Below are positions 1 through 48,429 of a stretch of 64,000 nt of DNA, one piece after another. The DNA is taken from the NCBI GenBank assembly GCA_973895155.1, contig OZ316893.1, forward strand, positions 27,414,210 through 27,478,209, written 5' to 3'. A program made the translations under genes and the position numbers. Position 1 is the stretch's first letter; the number at the start of each line of letters is the position of its first letter. The notes under the pieces are model-generated. The model was given only the letters and a program-made list of their open reading frames with translations. It searched no databases and was not told the origin of the DNA. This DNA is from Marsupella aquatica. Taxonomy: Eukaryota; Plantae; Marchantiophyta.

Positions 1-1778
1 ATCGAAAGGCAATCTGAAATGTAGGGTCATGTTTGGCCATTGAGTCACGAACACCTGGAGTGTAATCAAGCATACATTCCTTACAACAAGCTTCTCGCAC
101 CTCTTTAGTTGACCCCACATTCATTTCCATGAAAATATTGTGACAGGCACAAACTTTGTCAATCGATGTCATGGTTTTACGGTACTCCTGGTCGTAGTTA
201 TGCTGGAAAGCCAGCATCCTGATCTCATGTCTCGTTAGACCAGAGTAAACCCATGCCTCAATCTCACCGTACACTTGCTTTCCATACATTTTGAAAAGTT
301 CAGCCTTTGCACGAGCTCCATGATTACCGCCAATCACTCGATACTTCCATACCCTAGATTTAGTAATGTCCCACTCATGAATTGTGGGACAATCTGTTGG
401 ATCAACTACAACAACAAATGGAGCCGTGAAGTTGGAAGGGTTTTTCATGAGCAACATTTTGATGTTCTCTACATGTAGCCAATCTACAGGTCTAACTAAA
501 GTTGAATTCTCACCCTCATCTTCAAAAATGAGATTATTGACATGCAGAAGCACACTGGTCCTCTAGACTCTGCGTTCAAGCATGAGCTTTGCAAGTTCAG
601 CCTTGATGGCATCTGTCTCAAATGAAGCCAACGGCGTCTCTTCTTCCTCATCTCCCTGAAAAATAACATGGCTTGCAATGAATTTTAAGAAGAATTCAAA
701 ATGCAAACCATTTTCATTATTTCAATGCAATGCGCGATACAAGTATCGCTCCCAACATTCATTTTTGCTAGACAAATAAACTTACCAGGGGAATGCTAAC
801 AACAGCTGAGGTTGGACCTGAGGTAAGGGGTAATCGTTCTTTGGATTGATGCATTGACACAGCTGGAGTGCTTATTGCACCACTTGAATCTGCAGCTAGA
901 GCTACTCCTGTGCCTCCAATCCAACCAGTCCTCTTCTTCTTTGCAAGTGAAGTTGATGGCGATGGAACCTCTGCCTCGACAGGTACCAATTCATCCACAA
1001 CTCCCCTTCCACAACCTCTTCCACGACCACGACCTCGACCACGACCAACACTTGCAGTAGCGCTTGGGCTTGCCTCTACAGATTGAGGTGCTTCACCTAG
1101 AATCACTCTCATGGTAGCTTTTACTTGGGAATTCCCTTTCCCATGTCCCCCGCTCCCACTAGCACAATCAACTCCTTTTGCAACTGAAGATGTGCCACTC
1201 CCGCTAATGGTTGGCTTCCTTACTTTGATCCTTTGTGTGGGTTTAAACTCTTCACCCACGAGTCTCTTATACTCTTTTTGGACAAACGGCAGCATCAAAG
1301 GACTCAAATCATCCACAACATTAGCAACCCACTCAGGCTTGAAGATCTCCATCTCAATTGTACTCGCAACTTCCTTCACAATAGGGTCTTCGGGAAATTT
1401 GTCTAATGTTGAGAGATCATACAAATCCATGTCCACGACAAGGGCCACAAAACCCTTGCTTCTACACATTGTGAGGAAGCTCAATCCAATAGCGATAGAG
1501 TTTTCCTTCCCATGACCCTTCTTAAAGTCACATGCGGCAACCCCAATTACTGGACCAAAGGAGAGTGTAATCTTCTCTGTTTTCTTCACTTGAACCCAAA
1601 GAACGGGTGTCTCCCAGTCAGCTGCTTCCTTGGACAGCATTCGAGTATCCCGAAAGTACCAAGGTCTCCTCACAAACTTTTGTTCATCACAAATATCTTT
1701 TGTCGTCCAAATCACATTACACAAAGTTGTCATGAGGTTCTCGATCTCAACAGACCCTGTCCTTGCACTTCCTTCCAT
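1..1778 (-). pseudogene. 5' part of the element A gene: unknown N-terminal domain plus ParB-like domain (the MTase part would lie outside the window)
   Basis: Exon 1 is 1778-786 (MEGSARTGSVEIENLM...), the GT-AG intron is 785-656, and exon 2 runs from 655 (GDEEEETPLASFETDAIKAE...RPVD...WKYRVIGGNHGARAKAEL...AFQHNYDQEYRK). It is collinear with 38982-40700 and has the same phase-0 intron position. There is an in-frame TAG at about 563-565 and a frameshift near 65. Confidence 0.85.
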
Positions 1779-3691
1779 TGTTTTCCTTTGGCAGATCAAA
1801 TTTGAGATCTACACTGCTTGATCAATCCCACGAGCGATACAAGTATCGCGCTTTGCTTTCTTCTGAATACGGCATCCAAGTTGCTTTCTATTGGGTCCAA
1901 GAACCTTGAGCAGTGGCGTCTGTTGGGAGCTGCTATCGATTCTCATGCGGTTCTAATCCAGCAAGGGTCAAGGCTATCGTTGTCCATCTGCACAATGACA
2001 TGTAGTGCCGGTGAGTCAAATCTGAAGCTCAAGAAGCTCAAAAAATGAAGAATGGCTGACGATACTGGAAATCAATGTAAACTATCAGTTTGATCACTTA
2101 ATCTGCTTCTCAAAACTCAAAATCGCAGAAGAATTGCCAATGCCCGCAGCGATGCAAAAGAGCAACTTACAAAACAATTGGAACAAAAGGAAAGATAGAT
2201 TGACAGACATGACAAGCTGCAACTCCTTCTCTGCCGGTGGTGACTATGATCAACTCACTGTCCTCTCCTTTGTCGCCCTTTGGCTACATCAATTTGAGCG
2301 AGTACTATGTCATGATTGTTATTGTGGGAATGGCCAAATTGACAGCGATGAATTCTAAGTCCTTCAGACTTGCAAGTCTTCCTCCGCTCTTTGGGAATGT
2401 TGCCATTGAGCAGAGAGAGAAGAACGAGAGAACAAGCTTTGCTTTCTTAACAAGCCAACACCTTACAAACCCCCAAGAGGATCCATGAATCCACGATCGG
2501 GCTACAGATACAAGATTGCAGGCTCTAATGGAGTCTCTAGTTTTTGATGTTTTAACTGGGATTACTGAATTCAGCTTAATTCTGAGAACAACATGACTCA
2601 ATCCCAAGAGAGATACAAGCACCGCAATTTGCTTTCAGATTGGGCCAACACTTTCCAATCCATCTGCCGATTCCTCTTTAGATGACAAAACACAAAGACT
2701 CCTACTCGAAGCAATATGACTATCTCATATGTCTTTCACAAGCCACACGGAATGCCTCAAAAACTATTTGTGCAAAACCAACTAAGGGAAATGACTCAAG
2801 AAGCAGACCAAATCCTTTTCACAGTACACACCATGGTTCGCACTGTCTTCATTTGCGCCGCCTCCAGAACTTGTTCTAGTGCTGCCTACAGGGTAAAACT
2901 ATTTCTTTTTGAATCAGCCAGGCCACACCACCTCCTCAATCTCCTCTCTAGCCAAACAATGCTCCTTTCCAAAATCTCTCACACAAGCTCTCACAAAGAC
3001 AAGAAAAAATGGGAAACATTGTATGGGAGAGGATATAGACACGAGGCCGTCACTCTTTGGGCACTCAAAAGATTGTCGAGCCCAACTTTTGCTGGGCACA
3101 TTTTTGCTTGTAAGCGAACGGAACAGAGTATTTGTGTTTGTTTAGGTGGGGTTTTGTCAGGTCCACCTTAGAGGTCACGAGTGACCCAGTCCAATGATCT
3201 TTGCAGCGCAGTCCGTCCTAAATCTACACTACTCAATCCAAAGAGTGATACAAGTATCGCTATTGGCTTTCGGATCCGACCAACAGCTACCCAAGAGAAA
3301 ATAAGGGCCCCAACATAATATGAAGAACTGCGAGATGAGCAGCAAACGGCTTTACAATCTTCAAGAGACAGAATCTAAACCATGATTGAAGTATTTTCAC
3401 TCCTGCACCATGAGACTAATTGAGTTGGCTCAATGCACCAAGCGATACCTGTATTGTTGAGGGTTTGAAACTTAGGTTTGAATGCAACTTACGATACAAG
3501 TATCGCAAGTTGCTCTCTACAAAGCTGATTACGATACGAGTATCACAGTTTGCTTTGGAAAGTGGAAAGCTTACTCTTAAGACCAGAATGCGCATCTGTA
3601 TGGAGAGGAGGTTTTCTTTGGGTTGGGTGAGAGCTTGATTGTGAAAGAGGACTTGAAAAAATGAAACTTCTTTCCATGAGCGGGGCAGTCA

Positions 3692-3759
3692 TATTTATAC
3701 TTTTGGAGGTAGCTATGGTTAATTTCTAGCTTAACCCTAGTTAAACTTAACCATAGTTA
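3692..3759 (-). promoter_or_regulatory. Putative promoter of element A: three TAACC-NN-GGTTA-like palindromes plus a TATA box
   Basis: Motifs at 3710-3721, 3732-3743 and 3748-3759; TATAAATA on the - strand at 3699-3692. The two TATA-proximal motifs and the TATA box have the same spacing as at 35760-35811. Confidence 0.55.
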
Positions 3760-3992
3760 GAGCCTACTGCGCGGTTATGCACAGTTTCACCATTTCTGTA
3801 AATTTCTGATAACCAAAGAATTTACAAATGCAAAGGTCAATACCCGTATCGATCTTTGCATTCCTCCTAATCATGGATGACTATTTTTCTGGAATGCACA
3901 ATTTGTATCGGGTTTTACATGCCTTAGAAAAAAAATTGATCATGAAAAACGAGAAGGGTGGTCACCCTTCTCGATAGGTCCGACATCATGTT

Positions 3993-9306: not shown

Positions 9307-9649
9307 TGTTGAGCATAGACGAATTCGTAACGGCAAGCCCATGAACCATCCAACGCACAATAGTCGACACAGAGAGATACGTGATTCACCTCCACATGAG
9401 GCTACGTCCACGGGAACACACAAGAGCTTTACTGCACTCTAGGCCGACCGGCCATACCAAGCATCCACAGCACAAGCTCTCCCTATCTCTCAACTAGCTC
9501 CATAACAATGAGCCTAAGTTCCACCAGGGTCTAGCATCAGCCCTGGCTATATGCACACCAGCACTACCGCTAACATTAGCTAAGTCCTAACCAGAGTTAG
9601 ACTAACTGTGGTTAGCTCATGAGTCACAAGACTAGAGCAATATCTAACA
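9307..9649 (-). repeat. Copia 5' LTR (343 bp)
   Basis: TGTTGAG...TCTAACA termini, adjacent primer-binding site, and near identity to the split solo LTR at 35274-47971. Confidence 0.93.
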
Positions 9650-19385: not shown

Positions 19386-20203
19386 CAAAGAAATGCGTGA
19401 CTTAAGGTGGAGTTAGCTTTAAAAGAGGTTAGTGGCCATATATAAAGGGATTATTTTCAACAACTCTTTCAGCCTTGCCAGTACACTATGGCCCCCCAAT
19501 ATGATTTGGTGATTCAAGTGCTGCCAACTTATGTAAAGCCATTTGTAGGTTCCTTGTCTAGTGTGGTATCATCCTTGGACAGCTGTTTAGGGATATCTCA
19601 CCACAAGTCCAACATCCTGACTCTTGTTTTAAATTAGGAGAGCATAGGTCTTTGACTAATAGATTCTTGTGCTATGGGCTTCTCCCCTTTGGATATATGT
19701 ATGTACATTAGTTGCAATGTTGGTGTAGATGCAACCTTTGGTGAGCCTAGCTTCCTTGGCAAATCCGGAAGTCAACACCTACTCATTCACCATGTTGAGC
19801 TTAGAAAATGCAAAAACAAGAACGAATGTCACGGGATTTGAATCCTCAATAAAGTGACATCTCTCACTCTACGTTACAACTCACTATCCAAAATTGCATA
19901 CCATGCATGCAAAACTGAATTGTTTTGGGCCCCAGTCACTCCCTTGGTGACCATAATCAATCTTTGCATATGAGTGACTGTATGCTTCGTGTAGACTCTC
20001 TCCAATTAATCTCACACTGTAAATCCTTAAGACCCTTCAACTTATATGTTCTCACACCCTGGTAGTTTTACTTTAATACATCAAACAACTTCACCACAGG
20101 GTAACACTTGGCAAAACCCCATTTCACCTAGCCACAATTGCACCGGTAGGAGTAGCGGTGGCCCGAGCAGCTCGCTGAGTAGTGGATGCTAATGAAGTGC
20201 CAC

Positions 20204-20508
20204 CTCGGGGGATTCACTTCCACAAAAATGACATGAATATCACGTGCGACAAAGTATAGGGTCATTTTATTGGTTCGAAGGGAAGACTCAAAATTTTTTT
20301 GAGAAGAACAATTCAATAGGGTCTTTGAAATCCAATTTTGAGACTTATAAGAACATTAGGGTCCTTGTAACCAAAATTTTGGAATATTCTAAGAATATTC
20401 CAACTTTATAGAGGTTTAAAAACAACTTTTTTTCTTACATTTTAGGGGGTCCAAGGCCTAAAAACGTCGCAGGTGATGGGGAGGCATCCATATAGTGAGA
20501 CCCTCGAG
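20204..20508 (-). mobile_element. MITE copy 1
   Basis: CTCGGGGG-type TIRs; 8-bp TSD AGTGCCAC at 20196-20203 and 20509-20516. Confidence 0.9.
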
Positions 20509-20673
20509 AGTGCCACTAGAAGTGGATGGCCTGCCACTCTAGCTAGACTGGCTATTTAGTTCTACTACTTACCCTGGAGAATCACCTCAGGGAATCACTT
20601 GTCAGATTCTTAGACCACGTGCGAACAAATGAAGGGTATTTAAAATCCTGCCTAATTTAATAATAATTGTAAT

Positions 20674-20970
20674 CTCGGGGGTCTCACTACATGGGGACCT
20701 CCCCATCACCTGCGACGTTTTTAGGCCTTGGACCCCCTAAAATGTAAGAAAAAAATATTATTTTTTAACCCCTATAAAGTTGGAATACTCTTGGAATATT
20801 CCAAAAATTGGATTAAAAAGGCACTAATGTTCTTATAAGTCTCAAAATTGAATTTAAAAGACCCTATTGTTCTTCTACAAAAATTCTTAAGTCTTCCCTT
20901 ACAACCAATAAAATGACCCTATCCTTCGTCGCACCTGATATGCCATTTTTGTGGAAGTGAAACCCCCGAG
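20674..20970 (+). mobile_element. MITE copy 2
   Basis: TIRs CTCGGGGGTCTCACT / AGTGAAACCCCCGAG; 8-bp TSD ATTGTAAT at 20666-20673 and 20971-20978. Confidence 0.92.
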
Positions 20971-21830: not shown

Positions 21831-22443
21831 TTGGTCAATGAGTCCTCACCAGAATCACTGTTCAAAGCTGCACTGGTAAGTGATAGCAATGCCGTTGGTC
21901 AAAATTGCAAGTTAATTCACCAGGTATCAGTTTCTACATAGATTGGTCAAAAACTAGTTTAGATGCACTTGGAATGGCTAGATCAGATATGAAGATCTGA
22001 CGGCTTTCCTTAAGATCAGGAGTGATGTAATGTCTTTCCATAAATAATATTAGGTGGATCCCAAATAATTTCCCTTCTAGACCCTTGATGATGCATTGAA
22101 GTCTGTTCAACATTGGAGTTACACCAGACTTTTCAATTTGCTGATAGGTAGGCTTTAATTGGGGTTTGGGTTTTTGTGTCCACTCGGGTGTCCACTGCAA
22201 TTCTTTTGTTTGTTGGCCATTTGATTTTCTTAGTTTGATTGGGTCTTTCGCATGAGGGATCATGTGTCCTGGAATGGGGAGCCCTTGGTTTTTTTTTATA
22301 GTTTGAAATACTAGCCCCGACTACCTGTTCTTTGAACATGAATAGCGGAAAGTCCAATAAAAGTGTTACCAAAATATATTCTCTAGTATTCTTGTCTCTA
22401 TTCATATTCTTTGAGCATTAATGAACTGATAAACACCCGACCA

Positions 22444-22730
22444 CTTGGGGGTCTCATTGTATGGATGCCTCCCCATCCCCTGCGACGCTTTTAGGCTTTG
22501 GGCCCCCTAAAATGTAAGAAGTTTTTAAAAAAAATTCAACCCCTAGAAAGTTGGAATATTCCAAAAAATTGGTTAGAAAGACCCTAATATTCTTATAAGT
22601 TTTGAAATTGAATTTAAAAGACCTTATTGTTCTTCTGCAAATTTTTTTAAGTCTTCCTTTCAAACAAATATAATGACCATATCCTTTGTCACACGTGATG
22701 TGCCATTTTTGTGGAAGTGAAACCCCCAAA
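22444..22730 (+). mobile_element. MITE copy 3 (older)
   Basis: Same internal sequence as copies 2 and 4. TIRs are mutated (CTTGGGGG / CCCCCAAA) and the flanks match only 5/8 (CCCGACCA vs CCTGATGA). Confidence 0.85.
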
Positions 22731-32932: not shown

Positions 32933-35737
32933 AATTCCGTCACCTCGAGCACATTCGATATCAAGAACCTGCTGCTGCCGAAATTCAACCTAATACCTTT
33001 CCAACTGCTCGCAGTTCGTCCTCAAATCCGCGATGTGATAATCTCGCCTTTCGTTTGGAGAGTCTCCACTATTCCAACTCCCGACTTGCCGTGCCTCACC
33101 TCACCTCACCTCACCTCGCCTCGCCTTGCTTGCCGATCCACCTAATGATCTCCTTCAGTAGAGCGGAATGTTCCTCCACAAATGGAACCCTAATATCGAA
33201 TTCAGACCAAGCACAGACGGGAAAAAGCAGTGACCGATGCCGACCTGATGAATCTTTCCGCGAGAAGAGAAACCGCAACCCTTGCAACCGAAGTTTGCGA
33301 TGCAACAACGACGAAAAAGTGGTGGTATCAGCTCACCCACCTCCCGAACAGCCTTGCCTTGCTTCGCGCCTCGCCTCGCCTCGCTTGCCGACCTGGTGGA
33401 TATTCACAGGAAAGCTTGAAATCAAAGTTTGCAACGCCACAAAGCTACATGAGAATTGGAGCCCAGGAATTGCGTGACTGTCTTGTAACAACACGTCACC
33501 GTGTGGAAACGGAAACGGAAACGGACGAAGTTTACACACGAAAAATCAGCCTCTTTACTAACTAGTAAGGGTGCTACCAAAGCAAACTAGAGGGCTCCTT
33601 AATTTCTTGTCTAAAGTTAGACTCTACACCATGAATCTTTTGAAATAATGGTGGCCTTGCAAGCGGATGGGGGGACACTGCCTTATATTCGTAAATATTT
33701 TTGTGATTTTTCTCTTTGTATATTTGAGTGCATTAATTCTCCATAATGCACCCCTTGTTTTGAGAAGGCCATGATACAAAGCACCATAAATATAGTAAAA
33801 GTAAAAATTAAATATAGTTTTACCATACAATAATAATAAATAAAATTTAGTCAAAACTTCAAGATGATAACCAAATCTTATATGGTGATACTAAAAAAAT
33901 ATCTATGAATAGAATCTAATATAACTAAAGAATGCATATTTTTGGCCAATTCCATAGCAACCACTTCTTAGATGACTCTTTAATTTGAATTTTTTATTTC
34001 AAGGATTCACTTTTTCTTGTTTGTTACCAAAAAGTCACTCAAGTTTTTACGTACATTAATGTCCTAGTTACGGGTATTATGAAAATAATGCCCTCATTTT
34101 TCAAGGCATTATATCCCACAATGCACTCTAACCAGGACATTATACTATTCATATTACCTTGTAATGAGTGAAACTCCTGCCATTACCTTTATGTATATGT
34201 TTATGGTCATTCCTTCTTCCTTAATGAGGTATTGGGAGAGACAGTATGCCGACCTGCAGGACCGGGGAGGTGTAAGCAAGCCCCCATATCTCATTAAGGA
34301 GGAACAGGGGAACCCTAAATGTACATTAAAGGTAGGGGGCTTTTGAAAACTGGAATCGGCTATTGAAAGAATACACTTGCTAGCCTGTGTGTTCATCTTG
34401 GCCCTTCATTCAGCATTGAATGGGACCACCCAGATCAGGAAGTGGCCGGCACGAGCTTCCGACGTGCCTCCTTCCGCTGCTGTACCCGCGGCCAATCTTG
34501 GCCCTTCGTTCAGGATCTCCCTTCTCGAGGCAGATCCTGGCCCTCCATTCGGGATTGCTTTTCATGATGCCAATCCCGTGGCCAAATCTGGGTCGTCCAT
34601 AGGGCTGCTCTACCCGCGGCCAATCTGGGCCGTCCATTTAGGGCGTTCAATCTGCGGCTAATCTTTGCCCTCCATTTAAAAATGAACGGCCCAGATTTTG
34701 TTTACAGGGCCAGTGGATTCCAGGGCAGGCGTTACTTAGTTTGGGAGAGCAGCAGGATGCGGCCACTTCCCATTTCACTTTCATGAAACGCCATCAAGCT
34801 GGAAGTTTGCGCAGGAGCCATTTTCGTCTCAACCGGATGAGCTTTTTTCTCGCATTGTAGCCTTTCTCCTTCGTGCTCATCGAGAGCTTCAGTTGAGTGG
34901 ATTCACTCCCCTTTGTGAATTGTAGTCGTTCCGTGTTCATTGAGAGCTTGAGTGGATTTGGGACGACTGGCTGTGGTGATTTGGGTGCAGCTGCGAGCTG
35001 CATATCCGGCTGCAAGTTGCAATTCCGGCTGCGAGTTGCATAAAGTGGCCTGGTATAGAGAGGTATAGTACTCTTTGGGTGAAAAGTAAGTACATTAACT
35101 TGGATTTACAAGTACTGTACCTTGTAGGTACAATAGTTTGTGGTTGGAAGCGAAGTAGGTTAACTTGACATACCTTTCTAATTTTAGGCTCTATGTTGAG
35201 GGGCTCTCTATTTAGATAGGGGCTCTCTATTTAGATAAGGACTCTCTGTTTAGGTGACACCTATTGACCTATCTGTTGAGCATAGACGACATTCGCAACG
35301 GCAAGCCCATGAACCATCCAACGCACAAGAGTCGACATAGAGAGATACGTGGTTCACCTCCACATGAGGCTACGTCCACGGGAACACACAAGAACTTTAC
35401 TGCACTCTAGGCCGACAGGCCATACCAAGCATCCACAGCACAAGCTCTCCCTATCTCTCAACTAGCTCCGTAAAAATGAGCCTAAGTTCCACCAGGGTCT
35501 AACACGATTTTGGACTGACCGAGAATCGTTTAGCCCGATTCCATAATATTTTTTTCTAAGGCAATGCAATCTCTGATAAAACTGCCGAAAAGTCAAAAAA
35601 ACATGAGTTGCCTACATTGTATCGCCGCGGGAATGCAGGGAGCGATACGTGCATCGGGTTTTACATTCGGTCTGTGAAAAAGTCCGAACTGCGAGTAACT
35701 TGGTCCACAACCACGTAATCGAGGGTCGACCACGCAC

Positions 35738-35811
35738 TAACCCGGGTTAAGGCGGAAAGTAACCATGGTTAAGGGGGAAAGTTACCATGGTTAGAGCATC
35801 CCCTATATAAA
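35738..35811 (+). promoter_or_regulatory. Putative promoter of element B cargo: three TAACC-NN-GGTTA palindromes plus a TATA box
   Basis: TAACCCGGGTTA at 35738, TAACCATGGTTA at 35760, TTACCATGGTTA at 35782 and TATATAAA at 35804; the layout is mirrored in element A. Confidence 0.55.
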
Positions 35812-36109
35812 GAGGAGCGGGCTGCCCATAAAAAGTTTATTTTCGCCGGAGCAAACAACACCTCACTCAGAGTGAATACTGAACTCCTATCAAGTCTTGC
35901 ATTCCTCCCAAGAGACTTGACTCTTTCTCCAGAGAACCCGATAAATTTATCGGAACTACCATTCCAGTCGAGTATCATCCATGTAAGGTTGACTTGTCAT
36001 TTGGTGTCAATGTCCTGATCCGAGAGGACTGCGATAAATTTATCGCATTCTGCATTCCTCTGTTGCATTCCTTTGATCCAGTGCGCACTCATTCCATAAA
36101 TTATATTCA

Positions 36110-36310
36110 AGGTCCGATAAATTTATCGGAGTATCCATTCTTGTGATTGATTGAAGATTGCTTAGTTGAGACTCCGATAAATTTATCGGAGTATCCATTC
36201 CTGTGATTGATTGAAGATTGCTTGAGACTCCGATAAATTTATCGGAGTTTCCATTCCTGTGATTGATTGAAGATTGCTTGAGACTCCGATAAATTTATCG
36301 GAGTTCCCAT
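36110..36310. repeat. Tandem array (56-60-bp unit, about 3.5 copies), each unit carrying the palindrome CCGATAAATTTATCGG
   Basis: Palindrome cores at 36115, 36175, 36231 and 36287, separated by AGT.TCCATTC.TGTGATTGATTGAAGATTGCTTGAGACT. Confidence 0.95.
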
Positions 36311-36518
36311 TGAGGGAGTCATGTCTTCAAGTGTGTGAGGGAGTCATGTCTTCAAGATGAATGCGAGGTGCGATAAAGTTATCGCACCCTCCTGTGAGAC
36401 TCATCTTCCTATGTTTTGTTTGGAGACTCATCTTCCTCTATGATGTCGCAGTGCTGCAGGGTTTAGGAGGCACAACGAAAGGTCGATTGCACTTGGTGGA
36501 TCAAAGGTATAGTGACAA

Positions 36519-37002
36519 ATGGCTGTCTTAATTCAAAATCATGTCAAACGTGCACGCCGGTTGTACAAGAAACTCGTGCAACGTAAAGTTCTCCCCATTG
36601 GTGTAGGAGCATTGTGGATGGGTGGTACTCATCCCGGAGATAGGCAGAATCCTCTTTGGATTGAGTTCTGCGGAATGAATGGTGCAGGAGTTCCAATCCG
36701 TTCGAGGTTGATGTTAACGGCGTGTCTCCATTCTTTGGAGTTTTCTTGTAACTATTGTTGTCGTCGTCTTGACAACAAGTACCATAAATTGGCATACTTA
36801 TGTTGTCAGATTTGGAACAAGGACCCTTGGGTCAACCTTTCATGATGAGTGTTGCGACCTTCACATTGAGGCACGTTTTGTAAGGACACATTTAAGTAAA
36901 CAAGTCCTACTCATGTGCAGCGAATACAATATGGTCCGAGTCCTAATCTATAAACTGTCGTGCAGGGTTGGTACTGTGGATATCTTTGGTTACACCTGGT
37001 GA
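36519..37002 (+). pseudogene. Orphan Cys-rich cargo ORF(s) of element B
   Basis: A 108-aa ATG ORF with CNYCC/LCC, possibly continuing by frameshift into 36769-37002. No family recognised. Confidence 0.35.
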
Positions 37003-37042
37003 TTGAAAGTACTTTTATTGGTGGTTTTGGTAGCTCTGCTTC

Positions 37043-37453
37043 ATGGCTGCGTCGGAGAACCTAATCGTTGCTAAGATGGCATCCGTATTAGCCCACAAGC
37101 GTAGGAAATATATTCAAGGAAAAGTGCCTAGTGTGGAATGCGGAAGTCTGTTGAATGGACTTCCTGATCAACTCGTTGAATCTCACATTTGGCCTCTCTT
37201 GGCGTTGTCTTGCACACAAGATGAACACCTTGGCCTTGACCTAAAACTTTTACCCGAAGAACGACTGGCTCGAATGAGAACAATCATTTGTCTTGGAGCC
37301 ACCTCGAAGAAATGGAACCATCTTGTTGTTGGTACACAATTTTGGGCTTTACTAAAATATGCAGTCCGTGAGATTAATGACATAAACCAAATGCTCGCAA
37401 GCATTCCTAATGCCGACCTTCTCTCAAACCTACATATTGCTAGGGTCTTCTGA
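37043..37453 (+). CDS. F-box-like cargo protein
   Basis: LLNGLPDQLVESHIWPLL...IICLGATSKKWNHLV matches the plant F-box pattern (LxxLPxxL...L..VSKxW..LV) with an insertion. Confidence 0.55.
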   Translation: MAASENLIVAKMASVLAHKRRKYIQGKVPSVECGSLLNGLPDQLVESHIWPLLALSCTQDEHLGLDLKLLPEERLARMRTIICLGATSKKWNHLVVGTQFWALLKYAVREINDINQMLASIPNADLLSNLHIARVF

Positions 37454-37920
37454 GAGGAAACTCATTTCCTCACTCCCATAGATATGCTTGGGTGCTTCTT
37501 GTATGACCGATTAGATGCGTTTCTTAGAGTTTGGGTGAATCTTGGAGAAAGCGGGAAGCGGACAATTCTTGCATGGCATGGACAAGTCTGAGTGGATGAG
37601 GCATTGCTGCGAACATCCGATAAATTTATCGCACTCCTCATTCCTCTGGTCGATTTAGTAATCAATTGTTTTGGGTGCTCTAAGGTTTGCTCGAGAAGAG
37701 CTTGTAAAAAAACACTTGAATGTAAATGACCCTGCCTCGCCTGACTTTGGGTTGTGTGGTCCAGAGTGTAGTTTTTTGCGCCTCTACGGATGATTAGCTC
37801 ACAAGTGCATTGGCTTCACAGCCTGTTATACAAGGTACTATAAAGTTGAATGAAACTTGTAGAATTGTAATGAGTATGTTCTCCAAAATGTATTCCTGAT
37901 TTCTATTTGCTGATCAGGTC

Positions 37921-38643
37921 ATGCTTTAGCGACGCATTTTTGTACCCTTCGTGGATCCTCCAGAATGGGGGAATGGCGCCCTGATGGACCAGCTAAGGAA
38001 GCTGGATGAATCACTAATTTTAAAGATTTTCAAGCTGGTAGCAAAACCATTTTATAATAACGCATATCACTTCTACGTAGACTAGGTAGGGGGAGAAATT
38101 TATATCCGGTGGGATAGATATGCTGCATTTTCTAGAAGTATTATCTTGCTTTTTCTTAAAACCGGTGCAGTAAAACGTTTTATATTGCATTGCTATCATG
38201 TTGTGAAGGGCAATCCTGCCTATGAACCAGAATTCTATGCCCACAACAGACATAGAGCATTCGATGAGATTCGGGATGTGATTGACCAGCTGGACAATCC
38301 TCTTGCTACCGAGTTTTTGATTGACACTGGTGGGAAGTTATATTCGTACAGGACTCGTCAACTCCCCCCTAGGCCTCTTTGTCCGTTATTTAGGTTAACT
38401 TATGTATCTTGTTTATGGACAAATGTCCTTGACAATGGTGAGATGTGTCAGTGTTGCACAAATGCCTGTTGTGACGTTTTGTCACGCCGTTATTCAGTAG
38501 CTGTAGTTAATCCTGAGACCGGTGCCACAAATTTTCATTGGCTGTGGGCCTATGATCATAGGATCACTCATATACCCCAATGGCCCAAGAAGCTAATCTC
38601 TCGCTTTGCTGTAGCGCGGTTTGATCTTGGGTGGGATGATTGA
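37921..38643 (+). pseudogene. Orphan cargo ORF, Cys-rich C-terminal part, possible second F-box-like start
   Basis: The open frame 38146-38643 contains CQCCTNACC. An upstream disrupted frame from ATG 37921 contains LRKLDESLILKIFKLV. Confidence 0.4.
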
Positions 38644-38981
38644 TTAGGCACATTATCACATGTACACTCGGTCATCAATTTAAAGAAGGCTCACTTTTTG
38701 TTTGGACCACTTTTGCGATAATTTTATCGGTGTTGGTCTCATTTTCAGATGTTGACACGTACAATAATGTAATCTCGGCCGTCAATTTATATCGTGCTCA
38801 TATTTGTTTGCGATAATTTTATCGGAGTTGGTATCGCTCGTGGAATGACCTAATGCTTGTACGTGAATGAGGACTTTCTGAGTTCATTGTATCGATGTTT
38901 GCATGCCGGTTTTTGGTTCTTGGGTTTGTCAAAGCGATAAATTTATCGCTCCTTGCATTCAAATTTGCAAACTTTGTCATC

Positions 38982-41900
38982 ATGGGTCCTAGTGGGAAGA
39001 GTGGATCTGCCGAGGCTGAAAGTCTCATGACAAGCCTCACGAACGCGATTTGGACAAGCGAAGACATTTGTGAAGAGGTCAAGTTCACCAAGAAACCGTG
39101 GTACTTCCGCGACGCCAGGTTACAATCCAAGGATATGGCAAACTGTGAGTCTCCTATCCTTTGGGTCCAGATGCAAAAATCCGCAAAGGTTACTCTCTCG
39201 TTTGGCCCCATTGTTGGTGTGGCGATCTGTGAGTACTTGATTAACCGGGGAGAGGCAAAAGTGTTGAAAGAGGGTCTGAGTCTCTTGACAATGTGTGGAG
39301 GCAAGGGATTCACCTCTGTCATTGTCACCATGGAGAACTTTCTTGAGAAATCCCTTGAGAGTTACCCTGAAGATGCGCTTGTCGCGGAAGTTAGGTTAGC
39401 AAAAGTAATGAATCTTATGGGCCCAACTTGGGTGTGCCAGTTTGTCCAAGATTGTGATCTCATCATGCTACCAAGGGTGAACGCAGAGTACAAGAGGCTC
39501 ACAGGTGAAGAATTCAGACCCATCCGGAAAATAGTTATTAAGAGGCCTGGTTCTAACGGCAGTGGATCTTCATCGGCAAAAAGCGCTGGAGGTACGGCTT
39601 TGGACGAGCCCAAAAGTGGTTCGGGGAAGGGAAGTGGCAGGGGAAAGGGAGAGGGAGAGGGAACATCAGGGAAGATGTTGCTGGTCCCTCCAAGGGCGGG
39701 AGAAGGGGCAGCGGCAATCATCAAGGTCGTGCAACCGGTGCAAGTTTAGGCGTTTCGGAAGCGCCTTACATAAATGTAAGCGAGAGTAGAGGATCTGAGG
39801 GATCGGGGCCATCTGGTTCTGGAGTCAGCGTTAAGAGAAAGAGAACAGGTTGGAGTTTATCCACAGCCCCGGAAGGAGTGGAAGCCCTGATCGATATGGA
39901 GCCTCCGGTGCTTGATGAGCGTTTGCCTCGTTCAGATATACAAGCTGAGGTTCGATCGGTAAGTGCTACCAAACTTTGATTTTCTATTGATGAAAGAGGA
40001 TTCCGATAAAAATCTCACTGTTTCTTTCGTAATCTAATTTCAAACGGCATTTTCTAGATTGATGAAGAGGAGGAGACTGCTCTTTCGATGTATGAGACTG
40101 ACGCCATCAAAGCAGAGCTCAGTCTGCTGATGCAGCGAAGGGTTCAAAGGACAACTGTCCTCTTGCATGTCGACAATTTAATTTTTGATGAAGCTGGAGA
40201 GAAGTCAACTTTGATCAGACCAGTGGACAAATTGCATGTGGAGAATATCAAGATTCTTCTAAGGAAAAACCCCACTAACTTCAGCGCACCGTTTGTGCTG
40301 TGTGTGGATCCGAAGGATTGTCCCACAATTGAGGATTGGGACATTCTAAAGTCCAGAGTATGGAAGTATAGAATTATTGGAGGAAATCATGGTGCTCGGG
40401 CAAAGGCCGAGTTGTATAAAATGTATGGGAAGTAGATTTATGGTGAGCTCAAAGCTTGGGTATACGCAGGACTTACCAAGTCGGAGGTCCGGAAGTTGGG
40501 CTTCTAGCACAATTATGACCAGGAGTATAGGAAGAACATGACTTATATCGATAGAGTTCGTGCGTGCCACAATATCTTTGTTGAAATGGATGTAGGATCA
40601 AACAAGGATGTTCGCAAAGCTTGTTGTCAGGAATGTATGCTGCAATACACTCCCGGTGTTCGTGATAGCATGGCCAAACATGACCCAACATTCCAGATTG
40701 CTTTTCAAACGGGTGAAATTTGGGATCTTCAGGAGAAAGTTTTCCAGATGTGGGAGAAGGGGACTGTCTTGGGACAACCCAAAAAGATCATGGCAACAAC
40801 AAATGCAAAGGGAAAGGTTAAACCTTTAACGCTGAAAGAGATTAAAATGAATAAACTTGCAGGTGACCTCAATTTAAATACTTTTTGAGGTCTTCAAGGA
40901 CAGTCAACTAAGGAGCATGTTAAGCGGCTCTTGAATAGGGTCATTGGGAAAGTGATCACCTTGGATCAAATGCACAAGGAAGGGGAAAAACTGAAAAAAC
41001 TTTCCAAGGTGAAGAAATTATTCTTGCAGATATCTGGGCAGCCCGACTGGGCAACGTGCAGAGAAATGTTTCCAAATGAGACGGATGTTTCCGTCCTGGG
41101 AACATGGGCAGAGAAGTTGAGCAAAGCGGTAAGCACCCGTCTCTCCCCGAGATTTTTATCGGCCTTGCCATTCCATTAGTAGATTTTTGCATTCCTCGTT
41201 CCATTCAAAAATCATCGCAAGATTTTTATCGGCCTTGCCATTCCATTAGTACATTTTTGCATAACTCGTTATATTCCCGAGATTTTTAACAGCTTTCGTA
41301 TTCGTTAAGTGATTTCATTCTGATTGGAATTCTGTGCGACCTTTGTTACAGCTGAAGATTGGGTCGAAGCGGAAAAATAAAGTTGTTCCGCCTGTGCAAT
41401 ATAATTCGGCAGGGGAGGTTATTGTTCCCTCCGCTGACATCCCGTATGTGTTCAAGAATTTTGTGCTTGCTGCAATTGATCGGTACAACCGGCTCCAGGC
41501 GCTAGGCGAGGACGCACGAGAAGCCGCGGAGCAAATATGGAAAAATGCTGACGGAGATTCTTTCTCTTACTATCTCCATGTTGGGGATGTTCAAATTTTG
41601 GATTCTTTTGTGGAGGCAAAACCTTACACTCTTGCCGTCGCCGACATTCCGTATGGTTTTAATGCGCCTGGTTCGGAGTTTGATGAAGTGTCCTTCACGG
41701 AAAAGGACGTTGTAGATATGGTGAGAAGTTTTTCAAACATGACAGCTTCGAAGCAGTGGAGGTTTGTTGTGATCCATTCATTACAACAAACAAATATGGT
41801 CATGTCTACGCTTGAGATTGTGTGCAACTGTGGGGTTGAGTCTGGAATTTGGGAGAAGACCAACATTCATGAGCGTCCCGTCGGTGCTCGATTGGCGTGG

Positions 41901-42456
41901 GGTTTTGAAAACTGGTTGATGGGATTCTACAACGAGGAAGGCATCCGGAACATGAACATGTACAATTTCCAACCGGATGAGCTCGCATCAATATCATCAA
42001 GGTTCCATGTGTAACCAAAAAGTTTGTTGATCCGTTGGGCTATGTTGTGAACCCGTACCAAAAGCCTGTTGGTTTGGGTGCTTGGTTCGTTACTCATTTC
42101 TCGGAAAAAATGATTGGGTTATGAATCTTTGCTGCGGAACCGGATCCATGTTAGCTGCAGCTCTTCTCAATTCTCGCCAGGGTTGTGCGGTCGATAAAAG
42201 TGCTGCATAGATTGATTTTGTGAGACATCGGATTATGACTCTAGAGTCAAACTGGAATTTATATGATGAAGCACAGATTGAAGGGCAAGGCGACGAAGGT
42301 TTAGATATTCAACCACCAATTGGAGGCCAATTGGGAACATTGGGGACTTTCACTTTCACTGTTGAAGTCGTGAAGGAGGTCGAGAATGAAGAAGAAGCCG
42401 AAGAACCTCCCAGAATGCCTAATGAGGATGATCTCAATGACATGTTACTGGATTAG
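38982..42456 (+). pseudogene. Three-exon fusion gene: unknown N-terminal domain, ParB/Srx-like domain, and beta-class N6-adenine/N4-cytosine DNA methyltransferase
   Basis: Exons are 38982-39958, 40058-41128 and 41352-42456 (GT-AG, phase 0). ParB-like motifs: RPVD..HVENIK..L, APFVLCV, YRIIGGNHGARA (GGNH at 40379-40390), AWVYAGLT.SEVRKLG..HN. MTase motifs in beta order: LHVGDV, DIPY (41643-41654), IWEK, NPYQKP (42050-42067), WVMNLCCGTGS (42130-42147), AVD. There are several TAG/TGA stops and about 3 frameshifts. Confidence 0.88.
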
Positions 42457-42903
42457 GAAATTGTTATCTGGTTGTATGATAGTTAGGTTAGTTTAGGTTA
42501 TGTTAGATTATGTCAGTCCCACTTCTCAATATTCGGAGAATGGAGTGTGATAAATTTATCGCAATTACGTTTGAACCTGATAAATTTATCGGACATTACA
42601 TTCTACTCCCTTGTTTGTCACGGTGTTCTAGCTGGGGACTTATCGGACTTTGCATTCCACGCTCTAGCTATTCCACTCCCTTATTTGTCACGATGTTCTA
42701 GCTGGGGGAATGGAGTTGTCGATAATATTATTGGACTTTGCATTCCACGCTCTAGCTAGTTAGTCATTACAATCAATTCAAAAAAAGATATAATTATAGC
42801 TTCGGAGAACAACATACTTAGTCCCAGATGTTCACGACTGCGACCATCCTCATGGGAATGATAACCAGCTTAACGATAACCATTATAACTTAAAACCTTT
42901 ACA

Positions 42904-45900
42904 CTAGCTTCTACTATCAACGACTATAGTGTCCATCATTGCATTTTGAATGATTCGTCTTGTTTGTACAGGGAGAGTACTATTTGCCAATAACGCAAAG
43001 TTATACGCATAAACTGCAATTTCTGCTAGGGACAGTCTCGGGGGTCTCACTATATGGGGACCTCCCCATCGCCTGCGACGTTTTTAGGCCTCGGACTCCC
43101 TAAAATGTAAGAAAAAAATTATTTTTTAACCCCTATAAAGTTGGAATATTCTTGGAATATTCTAAAAATTGGATTAAAAAGACCCTAATATTCTTATAAG
43201 TCTCAAAATTGAATTTAAAAGACCCTATTGTTCTTCTACAAAAATTCTTAAGTTTTCCCTTAGAACCAATAAAATAACCCTATCCTTCGTCGCACGTGAT
43301 ATGCCATTTTTGTGGAAGTGAAACCCCCGAGGGGACAGTTCATCCTCCAGTACTTTGTTAGATGAAGCCTCTTTCTCCAGATAATATCTGCCTTCAATTG
43401 CAGACTCCTCTTCTGAATCCATTGCATACCAAGTGATTTTAATTCGCTCGGGGATGTCGTTAATTTTTGTGAGAATCTCAGTCACTTTTGCCATCCAGAA
43501 TGGTCTTCCCTTTGGATCTTGATGGGCTGCTACACATATCATTGCAAATTTAGTATTCACCTCTAGATCCTTGAAGTCTCCAATTTCCATGACTTTTCTT
43601 CGACTTCCGGAATACATGACTGTCCTCACACCCGCTATTTTATCAACCAAGATAGGTTCCATTGCTGCTTCCGTAGGATTGGTCGTAGGTTCTCTTTGTA
43701 CGTTTACTTTGGTCCAACTCCAATCAAAACTCCATTGTGCAGGTTTCAGGTGGTGCTGAATCACTTATTTTTGTTTGTCAAAAAACCGACCCCACCATAG
43801 CCGATCTTCGTCGTCAAAGTAATTGAATCCATCTTCAATTGCTCTTCGATACTTTTGAAGAGTCAAAAAATGATTTTACGCCGCTCGCTCGTCTTGTTCC
43901 TCAGTATCATTCTCTTGATCATCATTGTCTCCTGTCGCTCCCGTGGCCGACTTCAATGCCATTTGTGGTGCGACCCACATTCCAGATGAAGGAATGTACC
44001 AAACAAATTCCACGGGCTCCCCCCAATCTGTTGTCGTGGAAAGATGTTTGGCATCGAAGACAGACCGAGCACTCCCATCTTCGAGTACTCTGGTAATCCG
44101 AAATTGTTTCTAAGCACTTATGCCGTGGAGAGTATGCAAAACTTGACCATCCATATCCTTATCATTTGCTTGATCCTTGTCAGACACAAATTTTTTGAAA
44201 TCGGCAACCTCATCGACAAAAAATATTTTTTCCGTAGGATTGTAGGATTCCTCTATGATTGCGGAAAGAGTGTCCAATCGAAAAGCTTTTTGCTTGTTCA
44301 ATTTTGAAGAAAACTTGCTAAACATTTGATCAATTTGGTCATGGGTGTGCCCAACCAATAGAAAACCAACCTTTATTTTTGGAAAACACCTATCTCCACC
44401 AACATGTTCAAATATGCCATAAGATATTTATTCTTGTTTTCCCGAGCAGTGTTATCAAGCTGGAGGTAAAGCACTGGAGGGAGTGGACCTTCCTAGGTAT
44501 TCAGAATATGCTGAATAACGTGGATGGTCAGGTTGCTATCATTGTGAATATTTGGATAGTTCAAAAAAACATTTGAACTCAATTGTTTGTTGAAGATCAA
44601 ACAACCCACTACATGTACAGGGATGAAATACTTCTCATCCATATTCTTTGGACACCGAATGAAATGAGGTAACTTTGTCTTCTTTTGATCCATTCCATCA
44701 ATACAGATGCCCAAATATTTCTCCGGACTCTTGTAACATTTGCTCCGGTGCTTTGCTAACTTCTTCCTCTCCACTGCTTGTGCCTTTCGATGTTCGTTTA
44801 GCAATGTTGAGAATTTTCCTACAATAATAAAAACGTTTAGAACTTTGCTGGCCTGACAACGATAAATTTATCGGGTTCAGTATTCAAACACTTGATTTGA
44901 TAACCATAATGTTAAACCGTGACAGCGATAAATTTATCGGGATAAGTATTCAAACAATATATTAACACATTACCAAAGAAGAAGCATGGGAATACTCAAC
45001 CCGATAAAATTATCGGGGATAAGTATTCAAACTGTTCAAACGATATATTCACACACATTACCAAAGAAGAAGCATGGGAATACTCAACCCGATATAATTC
45101 TCGGGAGTAACACACGGGTTTAGAAACTTACTCTTTTCTGCTTCGAGTGTTGCCTTATCACGAAGTGCTTTGAATTCAGTACACGGGGCGCAGGTGGAGA
45201 AACAACTCCTTTTGGGGATGCGCACGCGAGGAAACTCCTTGTTCCAAATGTGAACAAACCACGAATATGTCACGCCTTGTTCTTGGCGCATTAGAGTTTC
45301 AGACTGGAAGGCGTCAAAAACTTCTATTTTTGTCCAATTGTCAGGTAAATGAAAGATATCCTTGTTGGGGAGACTCTCTACATTTGTGGTAAAAAAATCA
45401 TCCAGCCACTGAACAAGACCAAGATGTGCGGTTGATTTTTCTCTACAAAATGTATTGATCTGTATCCGAGAAAACATGTTCTTCGAGATTTTTTGGAGAT
45501 GATTATTTCCTAGGGAAAATAATTTCTTAAAACCACTCCGACAAAAGGATCTACCGCTAACTGAGTAACCACTTGCACCGGCATGCCCACCCTTCACACA
45601 TCCTCTTAGAAGTACGTTCTTCTCTTGGTAGGATAGCCCATAGTAATATGTGCGTTGTTTCGTCACATCCTGCAGACCCAAATTCCCTAGACAAAAATTG
45701 TCACAACATGGATACTTATAAATTTCTTTCATTTTGTTTCTATTCAATTTATCATTTATCACATTGTCTTTCCTAGTAATTCGGTCTCTATCTTTTTTAC
45801 TAGGCTCATTTGACTTCTCTATAGACTGAAATCCGATGAGAACATTGGCATTTTCCTCTCCTTCAAGTACCTCGCGAATAGATGCATCACTCTCTGCTGA

Positions 45901-46861
45901 GCTACCATCCTCCACAGATCTCCTCGACGCATTTAGAGGGGCACTGAAAAGGAGACTAAAACTATTCCCTTCTACATCTCCTTCTAAACATTCAGACACA
46001 ACTTGTGCTATGATATCAGATTCTCTATCTCCTTCCTGATCTTCGTCCTTTGATCCACTCGACTCATCTGAAAACACAATTGGACTCCGTGGCTCTCTAT
46101 ACATAACCCGAACACCACTAAGACCTCTCCTCGACACTTGGAGCCTAGAACCAATCACAGTCCGCCCTGGAGAACTTGGAGAATCTGGAACTCTGAACGG
46201 TGAACTATTCACACGTGTAGTCCCAACAACTTCGCGAGCTGCAGGAAAATTGAGCACTTGTTGACCACGATTCCCATGGACCATTCGGGAAAGGGCCGAG
46301 TCTGGACTTCGCAATCCAATTCCCTCGGTTGCTCGCACGTCCAGTCCAGGAAATGAGACCGATCGTCGTATCAGTCTTTGTATTTCTACCTCCTGATTCT
46401 CACCCGGAGACTAAAAGATCCGTCGTTGAACGTGTGTTGAATGTGGCGACTTAAATGCTGAGTGCGATACGCGTATCGGTCGCCGGATACCCTCTCCATA
46501 ACCCGGGATGGATGGCCTGAAGCGACGTCTCGGACCTAAACCTGGGATTGTAATTTTCTCATTCCTTGGTGATGGAACGCTCAAGAGACGACGCTTCTCA
46601 GGTTTACTAGGCGACACAGTAAGAACTGGGCTCAGGACCAAAACTTGCATCAGAATCTAAATCAGCGTCAGAAAATTCGGGCACTATCTGCTGTGAGAGA
46701 GGTAGAGCTTTAAGTATGCGACTTGGCAAACAGCGAGCGACAACATTAGGAGAGGATTCAACTGAACTTGAAGGTGAATCTGTGTCTGATTGAGACATGG
46801 CTATCCGAGACACTATGGGGCTTTGCATTCCTCCCTCAATCAGGGAAAACGAATGGCTCAA
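42904..46861 (-). pseudogene. Sola-like DDD transposase with a C-terminal beta-barrel-like domain
   Basis: A Ser/Arg-rich N-terminus, Cys clusters (CCDNFC, FSTCAPC) and an in-frame spliced intron 45131-44819 (EAEK/RKFSTLLNEH). Catalytic motifs are IDGMDQ, LYLQLDNTARENKN and VGHTHDQIDQMFS. There are stops at 46411 and 44493, frameshifts, and a MITE in the last ~45 codons; removing the MITE restores ...EDELSLAEIAVYAYNF...DSRS* ending at 42904. The superfamily call rests on the motifs plus the 4-bp TSD. Confidence 0.85.
43037..43331 (+). mobile_element. MITE copy 4, inserted in the transposase gene
   Basis: TIRs match 14/15; 8-bp TSD GGGACAGT at 43029-43036 and 43332-43339. Confidence 0.95.
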
Positions 46862-48094
46862 CCGACAAAATGTTGCTCCAAGAACACAACTCCCGAAACT
46901 CTACTCTGGATAATGATGCCAAAAACTTATCGGCGGTGACCCTTTTATAGTGTCTGTTGAGGGGTTGGCCCACGTGGCCACTTTTGATTGGCCGTCTCGC
47001 TAAACGACAAAATAGCAGAGAAGGGTATATTTCTTGGATGTCCAATTTGATTCTTACACGTGCATCGTGGAGAAATTATGTAGTTTTGAAATTTAAGCGA
47101 TAAATCTATCTCATGTTGGTATTGCAAAAAGTGTTTCCTTCATATGGAAAGTTGCAATTTTGAAATTGCAGCGATAAATTTACCTGATGCTGGTATTGCA
47201 AAAATTGTTTTCTTAATATGGATAGTTGCAATTTTGAAATTTAACCGATGAACTGAAGGATCTTAGTATTGTCGGCAAGTATTTTTGCCGTTCGGAGTTG
47301 CCGCGATAATTTTATCGGACTGCGCATTGTTGTTGAGACAACGGCATGTTGACTATGCATGTATGTGGTTACTATGGTCAATTGCGGAGGTAACTGCAAG
47401 GTAAGTTTGACAAACTGTGCGGTAATTTCTTATCGACTGTGATGTAAAATAGTTACGGTAAATAACCAAAAACTGGGGAAATTGAGATTCGGTTGGAACT
47501 TTCATGGTTGAAATTTGAAGTCCAATACAGGTATCGAACTTTGTTTGAAAAGTGGATATGGATTTCTAGATAAGAGTTTCATATATCTTCGGAGAGCGTG
47601 AATATGAGGTTCTGGCGAACGTTTCTCGGATCTAATTTTTCCTTGATAAATTGAATGTTTGTGACTATTAATTTCAGTGGTTCGGACCATTCCTGAATTT
47701 CCTGATTCAATCCGAACTCCGATACATATTACATTATTTCCCCAAAAACCTGTTTTTGATAAAAAAAACCACCGATTTCGTGAGATTCGGCGGAAAATGA
47801 AAACACACTTCTCGTTTGCGGAAATAGTTCTCGTTTGGTCGGAAATCGTGTTGTCTAGCATAGCCCTGGCTATATGCACAACAACACTACCGCTAACATT
47901 AGCTAAGTCCTAACCGAGTTAGACTAACTGTAGTTAGCTTATGAGTCACAAGACTAGAGCAATATCTAACACTATCAACCATAAGCACTCGAATATATTT
48001 AAACAGTACTAGAAATATAAACTACAATGCATCAATAGATTGAATGTGTCCTAAGTAGTTGTCTGCTTGAGTTTGCAGAATTGGACCTTATCGT

Positions 48095-48429
48095 CTCGGG
48101 GGTTTCATTTTCACAATTTAAATGGTGCTTCACATGCAAAGAATGATATGATCATTTTATTGCTTCTAAGAGAAGACTTAAGAATTTTCTCAGAAGAATA
48201 ATGTAGTCTTTTAAATTCAATTTTGAGACTTACAAGTACATTATATAGGGTCTTTTGAATCAATGGTACATTAGGTACTGAGTCGACCAAAAAAGAAAAG
48301 AAGAAAAAAAGTAATGAGTTGATGATGGTACTTTCAAGGGGTCAATTTTTTTAACATTTTAGGGGGTCCAAGGCCTAAAAACATTGCAGGTGATGGGGAG
48401 GCCCCCATATAGTGATCGAGACCCCCAAG
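48095..48429 (-). mobile_element. MITE copy 5
   Basis: CTCGGGGGTTTCA...ACCCCCAAG; TSD CTTATCGT / CTTATCAT (7/8). Confidence 0.85.

Follow-up and report, generated by a model that had tools for sequence, protein, structure and literature searches.

Two related transposons and their genes

The 64,000-nucleotide stretch of Marsupella aquatica DNA analysed here (the window; contig OZ316893.1, positions 27,414,210 to 27,478,209) contains a whole DNA transposon of 12,352 bp, element 2 (35501..47852), and a truncated relative on the minus strand, element 1 (1..3945), which holds the 5' part of a cargo gene. Element 2 was inserted inside the solo long terminal repeat (LTR) of a Copia-like element and is bordered by the 4-bp duplication GTCT (35497-35500 and 47853-47856), as judged against an empty LTR copy near 9520, and contigs from all four sequencing runs (4/4) join 35500 to ~47861. 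Its imperfect terminal inverted repeats of ~25 bp (left 35501..35525, plus strand; right 47828..47852, minus strand) match over their first 10 bases and carry CGAGAA at the same offset. The two main genes are convergent: a cargo gene (38982..42455, plus strand, introns at ~39960-40058 and 41130-41351), whose product combines a ParB-like region with a putative DNA methyltransferase, and a DUF7869 transposase gene (43333..46799, minus strand, intron at ~44822-45126), both of them broken in this copy. Dispersed around and within these genes is a composite DNA site, which is the main subject of this study.

A palindrome confined to the two elements

The preliminary description of this DNA had drawn attention to a parS-like 14-bp palindrome, CGATA-N4-TATCG. 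Exact copies occur 19 times in the window against 0.01 expected (maximum one in 100 shuffles) and copies with one mismatch 31 times against 0.71 expected; 16 of the exact copies are in element 2 and three in element 1 (735, 1835, 3492). The ten perfect copies with an AATT spacer, the six perfect-arm variants and the nine near-copies (one or two mismatches in the arms) reported earlier are all in place, and the suggested confinement to the two elements was borne out in this window, with no copy in the other 47,703 bases. The proposed extension to 16 bp by G/C flanks stands only in part: G or C is present on both sides in 17/19, but the flanks are complementary in only 11/19.

Almost all sites are non-coding, as had been proposed: in our working exon model 33% of element 2 is non-coding, and 21 of its 22 sites are found there (p=1.5e-9), including the introns of both the cargo and the transposase gene, the sole exception being 46465 in the first exon of the transposase gene. 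The sites had also been called subterminal, and two of the 22 are indeed less than 500 bp from an end, but 13 are more than 1 kb from both ends. The motif in this window is enriched in its own element, non-coding and present in tandem arrays, and its 14-bp palindrome is in keeping with the ~16-bp palindromic site of ParB-parS systems. With 14 sites in the plus orientation, four in the minus orientation and two in both, and with both directions inside a single intron, this is a DNA signal, and an RNA or splicing signal was rejected.

A third part at a fixed distance

The unit is larger than the palindrome. Listing every TATCG half-site revealed a second pentamer, YATTS, exactly 7 nt downstream in 20/58 half-sites of element 2 and 5/16 of element 1 and in 0/37 outside, while at each other distance from 3 to 13 nt there were 0-1 cases inside the elements. 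When only perfect palindromes are counted, the pentamer at 7 nt reads YATTC in 13/19 and YATTS in 15/19, against a background of ~1%; p-values for this pattern are post hoc, as it was discovered in the same data. The complete site is thus CGATA-N4-TATCG-N7-YATTC, up to 38 bp long if flanked by the pentamer on both sides, so that the palindrome of the preliminary description is real but the fixed-distance third part had been overlooked. The seven spacer letters have little information content, and the 28 sites form 23 flank groups, only three of which contain tandem copies; tandem copying is therefore insufficient as an explanation. Two sites in element 2 have the pentamer on both sides (35643, 42720), and at some places (e.g. 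42641) a half-site and pentamer are found without the far arm. Elements 1 and 2 share the same arms and pentamer, and so, as read from peptides, do relatives. The variation is confined to the N4 spacer, which is AATT in element 2, mostly CAAG in element 1, and C/G-rich near the element ends and, by peptide, in the relatives.

Some copies deviate from this plan. At 47098 and 47172 the arm is TATCT and the pentamer, TATTG, is displaced outwards by one base, and 38811 reads TATCG-N7-TATCG; these variants hint that the pentamer could have degenerated from a third half-site arranged as a direct repeat. Two other likenesses were set aside: the geometry of a Type I restriction site, as the ~12 bases between the candidate adenines are wider than the usual spacings of such sites, and the resemblance of CATTCC to TEA-factor sites, as TEA factors are not known to occur in plants.

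From left to right in element 2, a doubly flanked 38-bp site (35631..35668), with an ortholog in element 1 at 3838, is located upstream of a putative TATA-like box (35804..35811, plus strand) that aligns with one in the left end of element 1. It is followed by a seven-site cluster (35939..36384, plus) in a probable leader or intron region, with four sites in 56-60-bp tandem copies and six having the pentamer on the same side, and by a full three-part site (37618..37643, plus) in a probable intron of broken extra reading frames (36462..38643, plus). Three palindromes precede the cargo gene (38716..38960, plus): those at 38716 and 38811 lack the pentamer, and the one at 38935, ~35 nt before the cargo ATG, has it. 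Within the cargo gene there is a degenerate site in intron 1 (40004..40017, minus) and a tandem set in intron 2 with the far-arm variant CGAGA (41148..41303, plus; 41148, 41218 and a degenerate copy at 41278), and the space between the convergent genes (42548..42745) contains sites at 42548 and 42578, the half-site with pentamer at 42641 and the doubly flanked site at 42720. The transposase intron has four sites, two per orientation (44860..45103), exon 1 has one in frame (46453..46478, minus) and a degenerate one at 46360, and the region upstream of the gene (47098..47329, plus) has the site at 47304 and the variant copies at 47098 and 47172. Element 1 has sites at 735, 1835, 3246, 3443, 3492, 3532 and 3838, and the two elements agree in having one site immediately ahead of the cargo ATG and another in the first cargo intron.

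The signal in diverged relatives and in other copies

Relatives were checked through their proteins, which gives best-case codon matches and not DNA. In nine relatives of the transposase, with 53-74% identity over the length of the query, the disordered N-termini were compared. They carry a repeated peptide, G[MI]xxAIPVS, which results when pentamer, N7 and palindrome are translated in frame; it gave 10 matches in 7/9 proteins (shuffles, 0.01), and 4/9 have the doubly flanked form. Unspliced gene calls of cargo relatives continue beyond the exon into intron 2, and these tails contain the signal with 0-1 mismatch in 5/8 cases, or 5/6 of the tails of at least 30 aa; the three tails without it are 34, 18 and 18 residues long, and the test left out four tails shorter than 10 residues as well as distant matches whose tails continue as protein. 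In the tail of relative P0052 each of the three frames spells the signal; it is therefore the DNA that is constrained, and selection on protein cannot explain this. Exact matches for spacers of 4 to 10 nt numbered 0,0,0,7,1,0,0 in the cargo introns and 0,0,0,14,0,0,0 in the transposases, with none in 47,325 background residues, and the signal with the same spacing therefore appears conserved in diverged relatives. Such a peptide shadow allows the signal to be tracked in unspliced gene calls without a genome.

Sequencing depth points to a multi-copy family, as summed depth in run X1 was ~770-5,060 in repeat-free internal bins versus 41 for the flank contig, figures that do not translate into a copy number. 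Other copies have the consensus base at 41219, 46453, 45095 and 45100, and several near-copies in element 2 thus represent private decay. The sequencing runs also contain internally deleted derivatives of the element, with joints at 41477-45488 and 45144-46399.

Matches elsewhere were scarce, and no RNA source was listed for the sequence. Thirty metagenome loci had one match each to the site and none was element-like by blastn or tblastn, so these were dismissed as chance. The full 38-bp pattern matched once in bacterial genomes (~0.5 expected by our own estimate), in a genome without a cargo match, and not at all in viral contigs; neither cargo nor transposase was found in viral loci, and the cargo had no match in phage records. 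A σ70 scan of the window was set aside as irrelevant to plant DNA.

A cargo protein with ParB-like and methyltransferase regions

The cargo protein consists of a lineage-specific N-terminal domain, a ParB-like region, a helix-turn-helix (HTH)-like region and a beta-class amino-methyltransferase (DIPY; LCCGTGS). Its structural model (predicted local distance difference test score, pLDDT, 87.6) has Noc and ParB as best Foldseek matches (E 4e-5 to 3e-4), and aligned with KorB (Z 8.7, root-mean-square deviation, rmsd, 9.5, 187 residues aligned) and PadC (Z 10.0, rmsd 3.1, 100 aligned), from which the cargo protein is predicted to fold like ParB/Noc/KorB. Residues 151-315 aligned with the operator-bound domain of KorB (Z 4.9, rmsd 4.0, 107 aligned), and in relatives of at least 45% identity this family has a putative recognition helix, RDS[ML][AS][KR][HY]D, which by eye differs in relatives below that level. 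A homodimer model of the matching fragment of relative P0003 scored 0.55 against 0.00 for the best control, its runs agreeing in at least 44% of contacts with pLDDT of at least 71 and placing the interface in the ParB-like domain. The mark for a dimer was reached by 21/30 solved pairs and 0/23 single chains (eukaryotes 17/29 and 0/30), and the score of P0003 may reflect likeness to solved ParB dimers.

Loading at parS-type sites followed by coating of the element, as had been suggested, was not supported. In place of the ParB motif GxxR the family has GGxH(S/T/G), with the arginine kept in only 5/103 aligned sequences; G109, H111 and A115 are conserved, as are Arg54 (70/76) and Asn152 (100/103), which by our own mapping may match ParB boxes I and III. 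The lack of the GxxR arginine makes CTP-driven loading and spreading doubtful. We identified no ParB-type C-terminal dimer domain in the cargo, its place being taken by the methyltransferase. The wider idea of a ParB-parS-like self-recognition is partly supported, by the element-specific non-coding sites, the predicted ParB-type fold, a probable ParB/KorB-like helical DNA-binding region and the dimer predicted for a relative's fragment, but not by the CTP-binding signature.

The methyltransferase, whose activity is putative, is likely to be of the N6-adenine type. Motif IV (DIPY) precedes motif I (LCCGTGS) in the window cargo and in 6/8 relatives with motif I, the search pattern catching none in the other two, the relatives match PF01555, CcrM and phage methyltransferase families, and the methyltransferase matches CcrM and M.RsrI-type families. 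Catalytic-motif variants in the family are DIPY, DFPY, DLPY, DAPY, DIPH and DMPQ; SPPY, which would indicate the N4-cytosine type, was not among them.

The N-terminal domain of ~190 residues (38982-39550 in element 2, 1200-1778 in element 1) is 48% identical between the elements and had no relative among proteins of 182-580 residues; it is a candidate reader of the pentamer. Relatives of the cargo, known from proteins, are found in Chara, Riccia, Adiantum, Ginkgo, Holothuria and Haliotis. In one set of these (P0070/P0175 and the P0046 cluster), proteins of four Haliotis species have the ParB-like domain along with a weak Tudor match but no methyltransferase match, a possible case of domestication, and in Holothuria the domain is accompanied by a methyltransferase.

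The transposase

The transposase matched only DUF7869 in Pfam (PF25273, E=8e-20), a domain that we take to be linked to Sola. In the modelled piece (pLDDT 56, low confidence), residues 120-200 resembled winged-helix domains, at best with Z 6.8 (rmsd 2.5, 65 aligned), and the model had no Foldseek match at E≤0.001. In the terminal 50 bp of element 2 there are one-mismatch half-sites (CGATT/CGAGA), five at the left end (P=0.03) and three at the right (P=0.2). Element 2 resembles Sola2 elements in its 4-bp duplication and short imperfect terminal repeats, the 4-bp duplication of Sola2 being described as AT-rich (PMC3627910).

Candidate readers of the composite site

On sequence and models combined, we give about even weight to the reading in which the composite sites are the operator of a cargo dimer, serving self-recognition in the manner of VANC or TnpA. 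The cargo protein would bind the site as a dimer and so mark or shield its own family. Its two HTH-like domains would read the inverted arms, and a second surface, on the N-terminal domain, on the methyltransferase or on an additional subunit, could read the pentamer, comparable to P1 ParB on two A-boxes plus a B-box. Binding would tether the likely N6-adenine methyltransferase and might, like VANC and TnpA, hold promoters and introns in an open state; this mechanism probably does not involve CTP-driven sliding. A fuller scenario is tentative and on the unlikely side: a phage-type ParB-HTH-adenine methyltransferase was captured by a eukaryotic cut-and-paste transposon clade whose kindred cargo proteins range from stoneworts through Ginkgo to echinoderms, docks on a private network of composite sites, writes a base mark foreign to the host, likely N6-methyladenine (6mA), on copies of its own element and counters host silencing.

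Several observations weigh against a cargo dimer as reader. Binding and methylation by the cargo are putative only, its catalytic motif is DIPY rather than DPPY, the matches to the KorB, ParB and SopB DNA-binding domains are weak (Z 3.6-4.9, of which 4.2-4.9 is within the range that the tool calls common), and both main genes of element 2 have stops or frameshifts. Of the perfect palindromes, 4/19 have no YATTS at 7 nt, and the one-mismatch spacer series of the transposases blurs (4,0,14,27,12,7,10). Motif bases are variable among copies at 1/44 versus 18/242 positions, which is not significant (p=0.18), and the motif CpGs decay (5/16 versus 4/8 other CpG bases), so no protection from 5-methylcytosine is seen. 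The signal also seems not to vary within the clade, in contrast to VANC and TnpA motifs, which are specific to families: a difference between sister families is a trait of those systems, and here arms and pentamer are shared. Finally, cargo and transposase travel together, and co-occurrence therefore cannot separate them.

The main rival, which we consider unlikely, is that the sites are bound by the transposase, which would thereby activate its own family or bring its copies into synapsis, in the way of the AtMu1 transposase and Spm TnpA. It has the low-confidence winged-helix-like domain, the half-sites in the terminal 50 bp and the sites in its own intron and exon 1 in its favour, and transposases can be sequence-specific activators according to a recent report (10.64898/2026.08.24.746577). 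In the same source the terminal repeats are where AtMu1 transposase peaks, and TnpA is likewise found at the termini, whereas in element 2 internal sites predominate, no listed site falls within 500 bp of the right end, and the termini are arranged differently, with CGAGAA repeats. Host transcription factors recruited to switch the element on, for instance a GATA-type or GARP-type pair, are an improbable explanation, even though each arm contains GATA, the sites flank promoters and sit in introns, and a clade-constant signal fits a conserved host factor. The lack of sites in the rest of the window, albeit a small sample, argues otherwise, as do the presence on the element of a protein from a palindrome-binding fold family and the spacing, held strictly to N4 and N7 in 23 independent positions, which is in general unusual for host enhancers.

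It is very doubtful that the cargo is a true parS clamp that binds CTP, closes on the palindrome, slides and coats the element. The predicted ParB/Noc fold, the conserved Arg54 and Asn152 and the dimer interface predicted within the ParB-like domain would suit such a clamp, but the box II arginine of GxxRxxA is almost always missing, and in the fusions tested in 10.1101/2025.10.10.680097 its loss abolishes nucleotide binding; moreover the methyltransferase occupies the place of the C-terminal dimer domain, and ~22 sites in 12 kb would presumably make spreading needless. A neutral by-product of duplication and gene conversion spreading a short repeat is barely credible and was already disfavoured. 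The tandem copies in 3/23 groups, the N4 spacer homogenised per element and the non-significant conservation among copies would fit it; however, 7-nt spacers and flanks vary while pentamers and distances are fixed, the signal is kept in relatives ~47-74% identical despite two mutable CpGs, and all sites but one avoid exons.

Comparison with known systems

The main known examples of transposon-encoded self-recognition are VANC, TnpA and AtMu1, and a bacterial base-modifying enzyme is involved in none of them. VANC proteins recognise a short motif in non-coding parts of their elements, including introns, with tandem growth of the motif (PMC5735166). The earlier comparison with VANC holds for placement, the sites here being element-specific and non-coding, and extends to dense same-orientation arrays, tandem growth and an accessory gene on the element. 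The systems differ in transposase family, in the motif (here a 26-38-bp composite with a palindrome and not a 9-mer, and constant across the clade) and in the accessory protein, which here is of the ParB-fold/HTH/amino-methyltransferase type; an anti-silencing role by analogy with VANC is putative. None of 15 frames had a Pfam match to VANC or TnpA, the cargo instead being predicted to fold as ParB. TnpA and AtMu1 share with element 2 an element-encoded protein on clustered cognate motifs with CG (10.64898/2026.08.24.746577); they bind termini, however, and most sites here are internal, and TnpA derives from a transposase whereas the element 2 cargo is of ParB/phage-methyltransferase type. The element may therefore work like VANC with ParB-type parts, while lacking the CTP motif of a true parS system.

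With ParB-parS, Noc-NBS and KorB-operator systems the element has in common the predicted ParB-type fold, helical DNA-binding region and dimer and the 14-16-bp palindrome. It differs in the missing GxxR arginine, in having no ParA partner that we could see, in the methyltransferase that follows the DNA-binding region, and in being a eukaryotic transposon with many dispersed sites. A composite architecture has a parallel in P1 parS, outlined as two A-boxes plus one B-box (PMC2910045). GxxRxxA is given as the CTPase signature (PMC13495010), its arginine being needed for nucleotide binding in tested fusions (10.1101/2025.10.10.680097), and phage ParB partners of dioxygenases function without such residues (PMC13229309). 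The same domain pairing occurs in phage ParB-N6N4-methyltransferase fusions (10.1101/2025.10.10.680097, PMC4738411); here the gene contains introns, is carried on a DNA transposon and has relatives from Chara to Haliotis. MpDN4MT1 of Marchantia and N4CMT of rotifers are likewise bacterial-type amino-methyltransferases in eukaryotes, but these are host genes with SPPY (N4-methylcytosine), whereas the cargo family has DxPY-like motifs and ParB-type targeting.

No description of a transposon-borne ParB-methyltransferase or of this motif was found in the literature searched, although eukaryotic members may be listed in the supplements to PMC4738411 and to the ParB-fold preprint. Element 2 offers a precise target of 26-38 bp, together with a candidate mark and a candidate reader whose fold is predicted; if the proposed recognition by the cargo is true, land plants would gain a further way of placing 6mA at specific sites, the ParB fold would have a role on eukaryotic DNA, and a compact targeted methyltransferase might become available.

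Other features of the window

The broken extra reading frames at 36462-38643 have a weak F-box-like match (E=0.047) and Cys-rich pieces, and gave no translated match to the corresponding region of element 1. Element 1 ends at a perfect hairpin (3950-3973) at the junction with a Copia-like element, and its left terminal repeat is missing, which suggests a rearrangement. The flanking genes look like those for VPS28 and receptor kinases, which points to a land plant as host. An unrelated miniature inverted-repeat transposable element with an 8-bp duplication (43037..43331) is nested at the 3' end of the transposase gene and has no site inside; it belongs to a family with 8-bp target duplications, CTCGGGGG ends and very high read depth, with further copies at about 20192-20970, 22443-22730 and 48079-48415.

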